64,000 nt of DNA, taken from NCBI RefSeq assembly GCF_003334815.1, contig NZ_QOWO01000008.1, one strand, 5' to 3'. The notes below the pieces were generated by a model, which worked only from the letters and a program-made list of their open reading frames with translations, made no database searches and was not told the DNA's origin. Origin of the DNA: Escherichia coli (GTDB lineage Bacteria > Pseudomonadota > Gammaproteobacteria > Enterobacterales > Enterobacteriaceae). The translations under genes and the position numbers were made by a program. Position 1 is the first letter of the stretch. Every line of letters starts with the position of its first letter. This document shows, piece after piece, positions 57,421 to 63,023 of the stretch.

Positions 57421-57550
57421 TCAGATCACATCAGGTTATGTTTCGTTTGTCATCAACCTCAAATTATCAACACAATTCATTTTATTTCAATAAGATAGAT
57501 AAGTACACCTGAGAAAACTATGCTCTCATCTCCTAAGAGTTGTTGCATTT

Positions 57551-57577
57551 TGTTATATGTTACAATATAACATTACA
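57551..57577. promoter_or_regulatory. Candidate Zur box in the zinT promoter
   Basis: Palindromic tgttatatgttacaatataacatta resembles the Zur operator; about 35 bp upstream of the zinT start. Confidence 0.5.
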
Positions 57578-57609
57578 CATCATATACAATGACTCTGGAG
57601 GAAACTGTT

Positions 57610-58260
57610 TTGGCGATTCGTCTTCACAAACTGGCTGTTGCTTTAGGTGTCTTTATGGTTAGCGCTCCTGCCTTTTCGCATGGTCATCACTCACACGGCA
57701 AACCCTTAACAGAGGTCGAACAAAAAGCTGCTAATGGTGTTTTTGATGATGCCAATGTACAAAACCGAAAGCTGAGTGACTGGGATGGAGTCTGGCAATC
57801 CGTTTATCCTTTACTGCAAAGTGGCAAACTTGACCCCGTCTTTCAGAAGAAAGCGGATGCAGATAAAACTAAAACATTTGCTGAAATTAAAGATTATTAT
57901 CACAAAGGTTATGCGACAGATATCGAGATGATTGGCATTGAGGACGGCATTGTTGAATTCCATAGAAATAATGAAACAACATCCTGTAAATATGATTACG
58001 ATGGATACAAAATACTCACCTATAAATCAGGCAAGAAAGGCGTTCGTTACTTATTCGAATGTAAAGATCCTGAAAGCAAAGCCCCTAAATATATACAATT
58101 TAGCGATCATATAATTGCACCACGAAAATCATCTCATTTTCACATTTTTATGGGTAATGATTCACAGCAATCTTTATTAAATGAAATGGAAAACTGGCCA
58201 ACGTATTATCCATATCAGTTGAGTAGCGAAGAAGTGGTCGAGGAAATGATGTCTCATTGA
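57610..58260 (+). CDS. zinT: Periplasmic zinc/cadmium-binding protein ZinT
   Basis: ORF track 57589..58260; start set to TTG giving [10 protein letters not shown]... (216 aa); His-rich HGHHSHG after the signal peptide. Confidence 0.93.
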
Positions 58261-58602
58261 GTATTCTCATGATAACGCCTCGATGCCGCTTTAGTAAGTC
58301 ATCATAACTGCCACTGGTCCATCCACAAACGCCACTGAACGCAAGCTAGCTACAGACACGCTCATCACTATGACGTGTCTGTATATTAATAAGCTAACCC
58401 GCATTGAGTTAACCAATAACGGATTCCATACACAATACGGCCAACAGAGAAAGATACCTGTGCTCACGCCATTGCTTATATTGGCTGGTTACAATGTGCA
58501 CTATCAATTTTTTAAATAACAAATTCTTAAAACCACTTCTGTATAAGGAATTTTTAAGGTTCGTGGGATAGCTTGACTGTAAAAATTACAGGAGCTACAA
58601 AA

Positions 58603-59133
58603 ATGAACCGATTCTCAAAAACTCAAATTTATTTACATTGGATAACGCTGCTTTTCGTTGCAATAACCTATGCCGCGATGGAACTCCGTGGCTGGTTTCC
58701 TAAAGGTAGTAGTACTTATCTGCTGATGCGAGAAACACATTACAATGCGGGTATATTCGTTTGGGTGTTAATGTTTTCACGCCTGATTATAAAACACCGT
58801 TATAGTGATCCTTCTATTGTACCACCGCCACCTGCCTGGCAAATGAAAGCGGCTTCGCTAATGCACATCATGCTTTATATAACCTTCCTTGCACTTCCTC
58901 TGCTGGGGATTGCTTTAATGGCTTACAGTGGAAAATCGTGGAGTTTCCTTGGTTTCAATGTGTCTCCCTTTGTTACCCCAAACAGCGAAATTAAAGTACT
59001 GATAAAAAATATTCACGAAACCTGGGCAAATATAGGTTACTTTTTAATCGCAGCTCACGCTGGCGCAGCACTCTTTCATCACTACATTCAGAAAGATAAT
59101 ACTCTGTTACGAATGATGCCTCGCCGCAAATAA
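58603..59133 (+). CDS. yodB: Cytochrome b561 family protein YodB
   Basis: ORF track 58573..59133; start trimmed to MNRFSKTQIYLHW (176 aa). Confidence 0.92.
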   Translation: MNRFSKTQIYLHWITLLFVAITYAAMELRGWFPKGSSTYLLMRETHYNAGIFVWVLMFSRLIIKHRYSDPSIVPPPPAWQMKAASLMHIMLYITFLALPLLGIALMAYSGKSWSFLGFNVSPFVTPNSEIKVLIKNIHETWANIGYFLIAAHAGAALFHHYIQKDNTLLRMMPRRK

Positions 59134-59702
59134 GTCGATCCCCTGACAAGGAAATGTGAACCATGGACATCAACGCGTCATAAATGTTTACGCAAGTGCA
59201 CAATGCACCCTTTCCACTATCAACAAGGAGGAGCAGAAACTGTGTAAATCGTACAATGGTAAGACTTATCAAAAATACAGGTTAATTTTGGTATTTAAAC
59301 CTTTTTTACTTGTTAGTATGATACAAAGGCTTTCAAAAAAGCTGGGAAATTCAACAACTCTTGGAAATTATGGACTTTGTCCCGCGGCTTTAATCTGACG
59401 GCCGCGTTCCTTTTTTGACTCAATTATTGACCCCTTCTCTACGCAACTTCAGTTCCCACCACCAACTTTGCGGCAGTTTCATAGGATGAATGTCTAAAAG
59501 AATAATGGTGAGCGATAAGAAAACGACTGAATAACTGCACATATTCGCTCGAAACTTTCCTGTCAGATCCATAGCGAATCAAGTGCTGAATGTCACAGTA
59601 TCGAACAGAAAACAGTGACGATCTAACCCATCAAGAATATTCTACGATTGTTCTGTTTAGGAAAAGCAAGGCGGGAAGTCGGGAGATAAGTCATTGATAA
59701 AG

Positions 59703-59792
59703 TGGCGGAGAGAGGGGGATTTGAACCCCCGGTAGAGTTGCCCCTACTCCGGTTTTCGAGACCGGTCCGTTCAGCCGCTCCGGCATCTCTCC
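59703..59792 (-). tRNA. serU: tRNA-Ser (CGA)
   Basis: Reverse complement reads GGAGAGATGCCGGAGCGGCTGAACGGACCGGTCTCGAAAACCGG...CTCTCCGCCA, 90 nt with long variable arm. Confidence 0.93.
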
Positions 59793-59885
59793 GTTCAGAT
59801 GGTTGCCATGATGCCAGGAAATTTGGCATTTTAACAGTCCCTGTCCGTGCAATTTTGTTCAAGTGACGAGTTTGCGAGCAAAACG

Positions 59886-60683
59886 ATGATTAAGTGGCCC
59901 TGGAAAGTACAAGAATCAGCACATCAAACTGCCCTTCCCTGGCAGGAAGCACTATCGATCCCCCTTTTAACGTGTCTGACGGAACAGGAACAAAGCAAAT
60001 TAGTCACTCTTGCCGAACGTTTTTTACAGCAAAAGCGGCTTGTTCCTTTACAGGGCTTTGAACTGGATTCATTAAGAAGCTGCCGGATAGCACTTCTATT
60101 TTGCCTACCCGTTCTGGAGTTAGGACTGGAATGGCTGGATGGTTTTCATGAAGTCTTAATTTATCCTGCGCCATTTGTGGTCGATGATGAATGGGAAGAC
60201 GATATCGGTCTGGTGCATAACCAACGTATTGTTCAGTCAGGTCAGAGCTGGCAGCAAGGGCCTATCGTTTTGAACTGGTTGGATATACAAGATTCTTTTG
60301 ATGCTTCTGGTTTTAACCTGATTATTCATGAAGTCGCTCATAAGCTGGACACCCGTAACGGCGATCGCGCCAGCGGAGTTCCCTTTATTCCGTTGCGTGA
60401 GGTTGCTGGCTGGGAACACGATCTTCATGCTGCAATGAACAACATTCAGGAAGAAATCGAATTGGTTGGCGAGAATGCGGCGAGCATTGATGCTTATGCT
60501 GCGAGTGATCCTGCTGAATGTTTTGCCGTACTTTCTGAATATTTCTTTAGCGCCCCAGAACTTTTTGCTCCTCGTTTCCCTTCATTGTGGCAACGTTTCT
60601 GCCAATTTTATCAACAAGATCCTTTGCAGAGACTGCATCACGCTAATGATACAGACTCGTTTTCGGCGACGAATGTTCATTAA
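59886..60683 (+). CDS. mtfA: Mlc titration factor A (zinc-dependent peptidase family)
   Basis: ORF track 59847..60683; start trimmed to [14 protein letters not shown] (265 aa); HEVAH motif. Confidence 0.93.
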
Positions 60684-60783
60684 TTAACAACTTTGCAGAT
60701 TAATTAACCAATTGAAATGACTTATGAAATTTAGTGTTGACAGACAAGGTACCGCTAAGTAATATGCGCCCCGTTCACACGAT

Positions 60784-60859
60784 TCCTCTGTAGTTCAGTC
60801 GGTAGAACGGCGGACTGTTAATCCGTATGTCACTGGTTCGAGTCCAGTCAGAGGAGCCA
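60784..60859 (+). tRNA. asnT: tRNA-Asn (GUU)
   Basis: TCCTCTGTAGTTCAGTCGGTAGAACGGCGGACTGTTAATCCG...GGAGCCA, 76 nt. Confidence 0.93.
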
Positions 60860-60947
60860 AATTCTAAAAATTCGCTTTTTTAGCGCAATGTCACTGACCT
60901 TAGTTGAACATTGTTTTTTAACGGATAGCGGGTTTTTAACATCTTAA

Positions 60948-60980
60948 GCGCCCTCGACCTTTATGGTTGAGGGCGTTTTG
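60948..60980 (+). terminator. Terminator downstream of asnT
   Basis: gcgccctc...gagggcg hairpin followed by TTTTG. Confidence 0.55.
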
Positions 60981-61172
60981 CTATGAACGCCATCACCATT
61001 TTCCCCTCGATTATAAAACTTGAGTTATTCAGTAGTCTCCCCTCTTGCAACTCACACCCAAAACTGCCTAACGAAAAGTTATTAATTTTCAATCATATTG
61101 CTATCAGTATTTACATTTTTTCGCTGTGCTAGAAAGGGCGCATTTATGTTAGCTCGTTCAGGGAAGGTAAGC

Positions 61173-63023
61173 ATGGCTACGAAGAAGAGAAGTGGAGAAG
61201 AAATAAATGACCGACAAATATTATGCGGGATGGGAATTAAACTACGCCGCTTAACTGCGGGTATCTGCCTGATAACTCAACTTGCGTTCCCTATGGCTGC
61301 GGCAGCACAAGGTGTGGTAAACGCCGCAACCCAACAACCAGTTCCTGCACAAATTGCCATTGCAAATGCCAATACGGTGCCCTACACCCTTGGAGCGCTG
61401 GAATCGGCCCAAAGCGTTGCCGAACGTTTCGGTATTTCGGTGGCTGAGTTACGCAAACTCAACCAGTTTCGTACGTTTGCTCGAGGTTTTGATAATGTCC
61501 GCCAGGGTGATGAACTGGATGTCCCGGCTCAAGTTAGTGAAAATAATTTAACCCCGCCACCGGGTAATAGCAGTGACAACCTCGAGCAACAGATAGCCAG
61601 TACTTCACAGCAAATCGGGTCTCTGCTCGCCGAAGATATGAACAGCGAGCAAGCGGCAAATATGGCGCGTGGATGGGCCTCTTCTCAGGCTTCAGGCGCA
61701 ATGACAGACTGGTTAAGCCGCTTCGGTACCGCAAGAATCACGCTGGGCGTGGATGAAGATTTTAGCCTGAAGAACTCCCAGTTCGATTTTCTCCATCCGT
61801 GGTATGAAACGCCTGATAATCTCTTTTTCAGTCAGCATACTCTCCATCGTACTGACGAGCGTACGCAGATTAACAACGGCTTAGGTTGGCGTCATTTCAC
61901 TCCCACATGGATGTCGGGCATCAACTTCTTTTTCGACCACGATCTTAGCCGTTACCACTCCCGCGCCGGCATTGGCGCGGAGTACTGGCGCGACTATCTA
62001 AAATTAAGCAGTAACGGCTATTTGCGACTGACCAACTGGCGCAGCGCACCTGAACTGGACAACGATTATGAAGCACGCCCGGCCAATGGCTGGGATGTAC
62101 GCGCAGAAGGCTGGCTACCCGCCTGGCCGCACCTTGGCGGTAAACTGGTCTATGAACAGTATTATGGCGATGAAGTGGCCCTGTTCGATAAAGACGATCG
62201 GCAAAGTAATCCTCATGCCATAACCGCTGGACTTAACTATACCCCCTTCCCGCTGATGACCTTCAGCGCGGAGCAACGCCAGGGTAAACAGGGCGAAAAT
62301 GACACCCGTTTTGCCGTCGATTTTACCTGGCAACCTGGCAGCGCAATGCAGAAACAGCTTGACCCGAATGAAGTCGCTGCACGGCGTAGCCTTGCAGGCA
62401 GCCGTTATGATCTGGTGGATCGCAACAACAATATCGTTCTGGAATATCGCAAAAAAGAACTGGTTCGCCTGACCCTGACAGACCCCGTGACAGGGAAGTC
62501 AGGAGAAGTGAAATCACTGGTTTCGTCGCTACAAACCAAATATGCCCTGAAAGGCTATAACGTCGAAGCCACCGCACTGGAAGCTGCCGGTGGCAAAGTG
62601 GTCACAACGGGTAAAGATATTCTGGTTACCCTGCCGGCTTACCGGTTCACCAGTACGCCAGAAACCGATAACACCTGGCCGATTGAAGTCACCGCCGAAG
62701 ATGTCAAAGGCAATTTGTCGAATCGTGAACAGAGCATGGTGGTCGTTCAGGCACCTACGCTAAGCCAGAAAGATTCCTCGGTATCGTTAAGTACCCAAAC
62801 ATTGAACGCGGATTCCCATTCAACCGCCACACTGACTTTTATTGCGCATGATGCAGCAGGTAATCCTGTTGTCGGGCTGGTGCTCTCGACGCGTCACGAA
62901 GGTGTTCAGGACATCACCCTTTCTGACTGGAAAGATAATGGTGACGGAAGCTATACCCAGATCCTGACCACAGGAGCGATGTCTGGCACGCTGACGCTGA
63001 TGCCACTGAATCGCCACGGATAA
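61173..63023 (+). pseudogene. yeeJ: yeeJ inverse-autotransporter adhesin, N-terminal ~617 codons only; reading frame ends at the IS junction
   Basis: ORF track 61098..63023; start set to MATKKRSGEEINDRQILCGMGIKLRR; stop codon lies 1 nt from the stop of the IS3-family orfB on the opposite strand; full-length YeeJ is several-fold longer. Confidence 0.85.

Follow-up and report, generated by a model that had tools for sequence, protein, structure and literature searches.

What occupies the 569 bp between yodB and the adjacent tRNA-Ser gene of Escherichia coli, an interval in which no gene has been recognised? The window examined here is a 64,000-nucleotide stretch of E. coli DNA (assembly GCF_003334815.1, contig NZ_QOWO01000008.1), in which yodB ends at position 59133 and serU, the gene of tRNA-Ser(CGA), lies on the minus strand at 59703–59792. 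The original prediction, made from the sequence alone, described the interval as a gene-free gap of about 570 bp that might be decayed remnant sequence or might carry an unannotated small RNA or peptide. The gap itself is real (59134–59702). It differs from that of K-12 MG1655 by seven substitutions and no indels, so that an MG1655 coordinate equals the window coordinate plus 1,983,765. The equivalent interval of the K-12 RefSeq record (2042899–2043467) is without any feature and is likewise a gap in the sampled RefSeq genomes. A scan of 57500–61500 against Rfam 15 gave two tRNAs as the only passing matches and nothing within 59134–59702; weak matches to sX4 (24.9 versus 70 bits) and to a plastid model overlapped serU itself. 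A literature search on the yodB-serU region, on the names of the intergenic region (IGR) and on the hairpin sequence returned either papers on prophage insertion or nothing. The data presented below indicate that the gap probably holds one unannotated, stand-alone small RNA gene of about 89 nt on the plus strand, which is the chromosomal member of a prophage-type RNA family.

To define the conserved part of the gap, we surveyed 5426 complete E. coli genomes. Of these, 5422 held at least part of the gap and 3065 the whole of it, the remainder matching from 59256 on. The segment 59281–59416 had matches in 5418 genomes, with at least 99% identity to the window in 4999 and below 95% in none. The adjoining segment 59417–59560 had matches in 5219 genomes, with at least 99% identity in 23, 95–99% in 3102 and 90–95% in 2073, and the small number in the highest band is partly due to two private substitutions of the window. 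Between K-12 and a B2 strain, 1 of 136 positions differed in 59281–59416, 9 of 144 in 59417–59560 and 1 of 142 in 59561–59702. The divergence at fourfold-degenerate sites in the same pair was 1.8% for mtfA and 4% for zinT, and the spacer 59417–59560 thus diverges at or above the local level. The contrast was sharpest in strain 167, a divergent lineage that carries yodB: the segment 59256–59416 showed no difference from the window in 161 positions, against 19.7% divergence in 59134–59255 and 17% substitutions in 59417–59560 (26% counting a 13-nt insertion). Elsewhere in strain 167, the divergence from the window was 5.6% in 59561–59702, 4.9% in zinT, 6.2% in yodB and 14.6% in the zinT-yodB spacer. 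The absence of any difference between flanks diverged by 20–26% identifies 59256–59416 as a perfectly conserved island between fast-evolving flanks. The segment 59281–59416 was kept unchanged in B2 strains that lack yodB and have their own zinT terminator, and the conservation ends exactly at the 59416/59417 boundary. The comparison across strains, which the original prediction had named as a check, found a near-invariant segment in E. coli. These alignments indicate that the island is most likely under strong purifying selection in Escherichia.

The island comprises the following elements.

59256–59416, plus strand: the conserved island (promoter and small RNA gene), delimited by conservation, with homology to a prophage module over 59260–59415
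59260–59293, plus strand: upstream motif TAAGACTTATC..AAAAT..GGTTAATTTT
59294–59299, plus strand: −35 element TTTAAA, from a promoter scan
59317–59322, plus strand: −10 element TATGAT, from the promoter scan
59328–59416, plus strand: predicted small RNA of about 89 nt, with the 5′ end placed from the position of the −10 element and the 3′ end experimentally mapped
59328–59343, plus strand: stem-loop 1 (SL1), GGCUUU-CAAA-AAAGCU, 6 bp with a tetraloop, from folding
59344–59371, plus strand: linker GGGAAAUUCAACAACUCUUGGAAAUUAU of about 28 nt, a candidate seed
59372–59382, plus strand: stem-loop 2 (SL2), GGAC-UUU-GUCC
59383–59416, plus strand: stem-loop 3 (SL3), an intrinsic terminator with stem 59383–59389/59400–59406, loop UUAAUCUGAC and tail UUCCUUUUUU, folding z-score −2.6

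Transcription would proceed from a sigma-70-type promoter (−35 at 59294–59299, 17-nt spacer, −10 at 59317–59322) and would terminate at the intrinsic terminator, with the last U at 59416. SL3 has the features of an intrinsic terminator, namely a GC-rich hairpin, a U-run and an RNA 3′ end at the last U, and was missed by a consensus terminator scan because of its 10-nt loop. The 3′ end is taken from published data. An "orphan" Term-seq 3′ end at MG1655 2043181(+) is given in Supplementary file 1 of Adams et al. (2021, eLife 10:e62438), among the entries for both lysogeny broth (LB) at an optical density at 600 nm (OD600) of 2.0 and M63 glucose medium. This position corresponds to 59416 of the window, the last T of the run, exactly where the conservation stops, and a transcription signal, which the original prediction had also named as a check, is thereby found at the island. 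In the consulted part of Supplementary Table 1 of Bar et al. (2021, PMC8175672), "yodB.serU.IGR" appears among the S-chimera RNAs obtained with Hfq by ligating and sequencing interacting RNAs (RIL-seq), in two entries with 39 and 33 chimeric fragments, 1 and 2 partners, and a U-tract of 6. The supplements of Cappable-seq and SMRT-Cappable-seq hold no entries for the region. Expression of the small RNA is probable in stationary phase and also in minimal medium.

When phage and plasmid records were searched for distant similarity, 46-nt matches to 59370–59415 were obtained, and alignment extended the homology to about 59260–59415. The best alignment between the island and a variant of the prophage module covered 158 nt at 69.6% identity (E = 1.8e-11). 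The phage-type module was found in 221 of the 5426 E. coli genomes, in 88 IMG/VR contigs (by a core-motif search) and in two deposited phage records. At six annotated phage or prophage loci, it is flanked by late tRNA genes (Thr, Gly), 3′ of a Q-like antiterminator, and by the holin gene; its strand is the opposite of that of the late genes. We then compared the island, region by region, with the majority of 36 distinct prophage versions. Identity was low in the flanks (29% left, 6% right) and reached 79% in the upstream motif. The −35 element agreed at 6 of 6 positions and was invariant in all 36 versions; the spacer showed 53% identity, its length of 17 nt being fixed in the family while its sequence varied; and the TAnnAT pattern of the −10 element was kept across the family (invariant T68, A69, A72 and T73). 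The −35 and −10 elements found by the scan are thus the columns that stay fixed across the family. Within the RNA, SL2 was identical at 11 of 11 positions and the SL3 loop at 9 of 10, while SL1 (31%) and the linker (25%) were at the level of random sequence. The linkers of family members differ by indels with lengths not divisible by three, and none of the reading frames is conserved.

The architecture of the RNA is shared as well. An alignment of the island and prophage SL1 by MAFFT misplaced a gap, and SL1 was compared through separate folds instead. When folded separately, the island RNA and 30 other variants gave a 5′ stem-loop, a linker, GGAC-UUU-GUCC and a 7-bp terminator with a UUAAUCYGAC loop and a U-run. 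SL1 of the prophage versions has the same geometry in other sequence (GUCCCC/GGGGGC, GUCUCC/GGAGAC, or an 8-bp version). Applied to 22 prophage versions, RNAalifold predicted three helices, two of which, SL1 and SL3, showed compensatory changes; stem pairs of SL3 covary (CG to UA and back at two positions), and its loop is 90–99% conserved. When 33 distinct family sequences were aligned to the covariance model, SL2 was invariant, 97.2% of the cells were paired and five pairs showed double changes. The covariation score was reached by none of 500 shuffles, and controls in which the alignment was slid scored far lower.

The covariance model, R1, was built from the 22 prophage sequences with the island left out. 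Over the 64-kb window it gave a single significant match, at 59339–59418(+), with 53.6 bits and E = 2.6e-10, the next match having E = 0.66; these E-values are rough owing to a short calibration. R1 misaligned SL1 of the island, the linker of which is about 9 nt longer. No match to R1 was found at the PasA, PasB and PasC loci (3 kb each) of enteropathogenic E. coli (EPEC) E2348/69, in the UMNF18 serU prophage, or beside serU in Salmonella, Citrobacter and E. marmotae. Rfam gave no match at the module in the prophage copies either. Some prophages hold a pair of family members separated by about 1 kb. The second member (L040 1960–2041; L061 4464–4545, minus strands) belongs to a third, divergent subtype, which keeps the layout and has the −10 element TATACT, an SL1 of its own and a terminator stem that covaries (GCGACC/GGUCGC). 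The linker of this subtype and that of the E. coli island have GGAAAUUC in common. Sub-threshold matches resembling STnc100 (about 22 bits; gathering score 47) were also observed convergent to the module (L025 1629–1825; L024 8463–8656, minus strand), and these neighbours fit the notion of the Q-to-holin region as a hot spot for several small RNA genes.

A chromosomal orthologue was found in a cryptic-clade Escherichia, assigned by its ZinT to the E. marmotae/E. ruysiae cluster (L132 2437–2534, minus strand; 41.4 bits and E = 1.1e-7 with R1). Its identity to the E. coli island is about 85%, and its neighbours are fliE on one side and a PPC-domain gene on the other; the locus is 1.5 kb from zinT and is not that of serU. 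Its promoter has an identical −35 element (TTTAAA), a 17-nt spacer and a −10 element TAAGAT (5/6 match), preceded by a recognisable upstream motif. A 34-nt stretch, CAAAAAAGCTGGGAAATTCAACAACTCTTGGAAA (around 59334–59363), which includes the loop and 3′ arm of SL1 and most of the linker, is identical in the two species and constitutes, as judged from sequence comparison, the best candidate seed; the conserved linker stretch for target prediction is GGGAAAUUCAACAACUCUUGGAAA. An AT-rich palindrome-like motif just 5′ of the −35 element (59274–59291, AAAATACAGGTTAATTTT; prophage form AAATTAAGGTTAATTT) is kept in the island, L132 and the prophages, and may be a candidate operator or regulator site. 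The RNA gene lies 0.2–1.5 kb from zinT in two Escherichia species at different loci, and a functional link to zinT or zinc is possible. In Salmonella and Citrobacter, the gap DNA was not found, similarity to the window stopping within 20 nt of the serU 3′ end, and YodB relatives elsewhere are not adjacent to serU. In E. marmotae (identified by its MtfA cluster; L016 and L128–L131), shiA-amn-yeeO rather than zinT/yodB lies on the 3′ side of serU, and no family member was found at this serU. The synteny between E. coli and E. marmotae breaks exactly at the tRNA 3′ end.

We consider that the members of this family would be autonomous promoter-RNA-terminator modules ("morons"), otherwise residing in lambdoid or Rac-like prophages. 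As to the direction of transfer, we infer that such a phage most likely supplied the chromosomal copy before E. coli and the cryptic Escherichia clades split, and that the copy has been retained since. The RNA would most likely act in trans by Hfq-associated base pairing with its putative targets, with the linker as the seed.

Several points weigh against a stand-alone small RNA gene. The promoter scan by itself was at chance level in this AT-rich region (2 found versus 3.6 expected), and both the 5′ end and independent transcription are predicted from the conserved promoter motif. The alignment used for the covariation analysis was fitted to the model and consists of closely related sequences, and over the hairpins R1 and the island are 87% identical in sequence, so that the match of R1 is no evidence from structure alone. 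SL1 and SL2 are weaker in the minimum-free-energy fold of the L132 orthologue. The Term-seq signal, of about 1900–2200 units, is modest and is absent from the LB OD600 0.4 list, and the "orphan" class includes long 3′ untranslated regions (UTRs) (Adams et al. 2021, eLife 10:e62438). The RIL-seq evidence, in the part of the table consulted, is at the level of the IGR name and not of strand or position; the classifier there assigned yodB.serU.IGR low small RNA probabilities (0.010 and 0.046) with its 1–2 partners (PMC8175672), and the IGR was not found in the EPEC RIL-seq tables. Finally, a gene precedes the module on the same strand everywhere: yodB or zinT in E. coli, the PPC-domain gene in L132 and a 41-aa open reading frame (ORF) in phage L025.

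The main rival explanation is that the island serves the gene upstream of it (yodB, or zinT in strains lacking yodB) as a shared terminator or long 3′ UTR, insulating that gene from the convergent and very highly expressed serU, with the small RNA as a by-product or processed fragment. An origin in a 3′ UTR is kept in play by the same-strand gene upstream in every context, and the "orphan" class of the 3′ end, the start site placed from a promoter motif and the low classifier scores in the consulted part of the RIL-seq table would all suit a 3′-UTR piece. However, conservation extends about 130 nt upstream of the hairpin, with −35, 17-nt spacing and −10 kept across a family that is otherwise 60–70% identical. 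In B2 strains, a separate strong zinT terminator is present 110 nt upstream, and the island is still unchanged. The upstream genes are wholly different between contexts while the module boundary is constant, the prophage module is opposite in strand to its host operon, and neither the invariant loop nor the invariant preceding hairpin would be needed for a plain terminator. We therefore regard a role as terminator or 3′ UTR as unlikely, although it deserves serious consideration, and favour the stand-alone small RNA gene.

The location beside serU raised another explanation, that the island is a functionless fossil of an old serU prophage or genomic island and that the rest of the gap is decayed remnant. 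The original prediction had pointed out that tRNA-Ser loci are frequent integration targets, and serU is indeed a documented site of prophage integration (PMC9729726, PMC8190617). We agree that serU is a real integration hot spot. The homology of the island with a prophage module and the break of synteny at the tRNA 3′ end outside E. coli would also be in keeping with a fossil. The remnant idea holds only in so far as the RNA module has a homologue in lambdoid prophages; the gap contains no integrase-like ORF or integrase fragment and no duplicated tRNA 3′ end, the best repeat of the serU 3′ end in it not exceeding 72% over 18 nt. A fossil would moreover decay like its flanks, whereas the island, near-invariant in 5418 genomes, shows 0/161 differences against 20–26%, which largely refutes the idea; an orthologue with the identical 34-nt stretch exists in another Escherichia species at another locus, and a transcript 3′ end is mapped at the island end. 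Taken together, these data make a functionless fossil very improbable.

The right half of the gap also has matches in phages. Phages ev099, mEp332 and PhiR70_1 carry 59425–59764 at about 96.5% identity in their b region, the piece consisting of 278 bp of the gap and the 3′ 62 nt of serU (L022 2051–2388; L023 3501–3840). Three "plasmid" records of 35–64 kb have the same piece. We considered whether 59425–59764 is a phage attP arm left in the host and rejected this, the direction being from host to phage. The integrase of the three phages, which we take to be lambda Int, is only 23–26% identical to the integrases beside serU in UMNF18 and Citrobacter, and is located 2.1 kb from the captured stretch, behind insertion sequence fragments and an AraC-type gene. 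In genuine serU prophages, int lies 27–114 nt from the tRNA, and that of UMNF18 ends 27 nt away. Collinearity of the captured stretch with the UMNF18 serU host-prophage junction extends across tfa, the gene for tail-fibre assembly (98.2% over 1783 bp). This collinearity, together with the lambda-type integrase, indicates that a piece of a host-prophage junction was captured by another phage.

We further examined whether the gap encodes a small protein, either an 80-aa ORF at 59156–59398 (plus strand), which the original prediction had flagged as of low-complexity composition, or a 36-aa ORF on the minus strand across the island (59423–59313), which has a TTG start with AAGGGG seven nt upstream. 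Both frames exist; the 80-aa ORF is annotated in many GenBank genomes, solely as "hypothetical protein", and its frame stays open over the junction in strains lacking yodB, and in the 36-aa frame the common single-nucleotide polymorphism (SNP) at 59418 is a synonymous change (read by hand). The 80-aa ORF is nevertheless no gene, its frame being broken among strains. In strain 167 (L028), the frame is stopped at codon 16, and the first 33 codons of the ORF lie in DNA missing from 43% of E. coli genomes, so that the N-terminal third is not common to strains; in those without yodB an unrelated N-terminal half is joined to the same frame. Reading by hand showed that all three SNPs in the shared part of the 80-aa ORF are non-synonymous, as are the rare island SNPs in both frames. 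The AAGGGG of the 36-aa ORF is AAGGGT in K-12, the linker indels of the family keep no frame, neither ORF is called by RefSeq, and the Ribo-RET/Api supplement has no entry at MG1655 2042900–2043499. The peptide proposed earlier therefore finds no support, with the frame stopped in strain 167 and no entry in that supplement, and a small protein is the least credible of the explanations that we weighed, to the point of being almost negligible.

The other features flagged by the original prediction were the Shine-Dalgarno-like aaggagg and an inverted repeat. As with the ORF, these exist, but none is above chance or conserved. The aaggagg (59225–59231, plus strand) was correctly described as having no credible start codon behind it: what follows is only GTG-TAA (59242–59247), a CTG in frame at 59240, and an ATG, 24 nt away, that opens a 9-codon frame. 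It is positioned inside the variable yodB cassette and reads ccagggg in strain 167. Two minimal start-stop pairs are present in the yodB 3′ flank, ATG-TGA (59154–59159, behind AAGGAA) and the GTG-TAA behind AAGGAGG; these are probably due to chance, the GTG-TAA being lost along with its Shine-Dalgarno sequence in strain 167. The inverted repeat near 59607–59660 (AACAGAA at 59604–59610, TTCTGTT at 59651–59657) has arms of 7 bp, which is at chance level and below the threshold of the repeat search (length at least 9). The minus-strand RNA over it folds no better than shuffles (z = +0.71). As a terminator of serU the repeat was rejected, having no hairpin that beats shuffles and no U-run. Of the suggestions made for the gap, the unannotated small RNA is thus well supported, but at 59328–59416, with a promoter from about 59260, apart from all three flagged features, which can be set aside as false leads.

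The remainder of the gap is accounted for by an accessory cassette flank, a neutral spacer and a block next to serU, as follows.

59134–59255: yodB 3′ flank, the right end of the 995-bp yodB cassette (58261–59255), defined by presence and absence among strains
59417–59560: fast-evolving spacer, 6.3% divergence between K-12 and B2, population identity mostly 90–99%
59561–59702: moderately conserved block beside the serU 3′ end, at least 99% identical in 2897 of 5405 genomes

The gene yodB is present in 3114 of the 5426 genomes (57%). In a B2-type genome with the yersiniabactin island at asnT (L014), yodB is lacking: the zinT stop (58260) is followed by an unrelated 222 bp, and homology to the window begins again from 59256. 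This 222-bp replacement, found in strains without yodB, carries its own strong zinT terminator. Since these strains rejoin the window at 59256, the segment 59134–59255 is the tail of an accessory cassette. The first ~25 nt past the junction (59256–59280) are 24% diverged between the two haplotypes. At the other end, the block 59561–59702 differs by 0.7% between K-12 and B2, against the 6.3% of the spacer on its left. No recognisable terminator or RNA motif was detected within it, and scanning and folding gave no intrinsic terminator for serU; the block might hold serU 3′-trailer or termination signals.

The small RNA can be compared with several known systems. Prophage "moron" small RNAs of the Q-to-lysis region include PasA, PasC, PasD/STnc100, AsxR and AgvB (Pearl Mizrahi et al. 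2021, PMC8550237; Zhu, Shabalina & Storz 2026 preprint). Like the Pas-type RNAs, the prophage relatives of the island occupy the same hot spot, from Q and the late tRNAs to the holin-lysozyme genes; they are short, with their own terminator hairpin and U-run, a variable 5′ part and a conserved 3′ part; and a weak STnc100-like match lies beside them on the other strand. They nevertheless form a different family by sequence and by model R1, without a match in Rfam. The identity of the island with a Pas small RNA was rejected, R1 having no match at the PasA, PasB and PasC loci and the printed fragments of PasA and PasD (partial sequences) being unrelated. Moreover, Pas RNAs are accessory and linked to pathovars, whereas the island copy is present in 5418 of 5426 E. 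coli genomes, outside any prophage. With respect to integration scars next to tRNA genes, the island resembles them in lying on the 3′ side of a proven attachment-site tRNA where synteny with other genera ends, but differs in having neither a direct repeat of the serU 3′ end nor an integrase remnant, and the phage homology of 59425–59764 runs from host to phage.

DicF (from Qin) and IpeX (from DLP12) are phage-derived small RNAs that E. coli K-12 has kept and that act on host genes. The island RNA is similar in being a probably phage-derived small RNA retained by its host, but DicF and IpeX are still inside recognisable cryptic prophages, whereas at the island only a 160-nt module is left, fixed in the species; Rfam gave no match that would relate it to either of them. 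RybB, MicA and RyhB are the canonical Hfq-dependent intergenic small RNAs. The island RNA shares with them a stand-alone (here predicted) promoter, a length of 80–100 nt, a single-stranded candidate seed and a Rho-independent terminator with a six-U run; its conservation covers the promoter and RNA and ends at the terminator, and RNA of the IGR was recovered with Hfq according to the consulted part of the RIL-seq table. Unlike in those RNAs, the most conserved part of the family is the 3′ double hairpin with its loop and not the seed, and the classifier score is low.

The prophage context also invites a more speculative extension, that the chromosomal RNA is a domesticated phage regulator which still acts on phages, in lysis or late expression control, and whose linker in addition regulates host genes, maybe linked to zinT or zinc. 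The 46-nt double hairpin of the E. coli copy is 83–89% identical to the prophage copies, and the prophage module is antisense to the late transcript just 5′ of holin, so that the core RNA would be largely complementary to the phage late-mRNA leader. We regard this extension as doubtful, but if true, it would place prophage induction under the control of the host, or amount to a kind of phage interference.

In small-RNA biology, E. coli K-12 serves as the reference organism, and the catalogue of its intergenic small RNAs is thought to be nearly complete. An unexplained published Term-seq 3′ end coincides with the end of the island, and the IGR, going by the consulted part of the table, is listed by RIL-seq. 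The family to which it belongs is not in Rfam, yet has more than 200 prophage copies in the 5426 E. coli genomes and occurs on the 88 IMG/VR contigs. The locus would offer a clean example of a phage "moron" RNA that has become fixed in the core genome of its host. If the small RNA is confirmed, the annotation of MG1655 would gain a gene, and the 34-nt stretch identical between the two Escherichia species would provide a handle for its targets.

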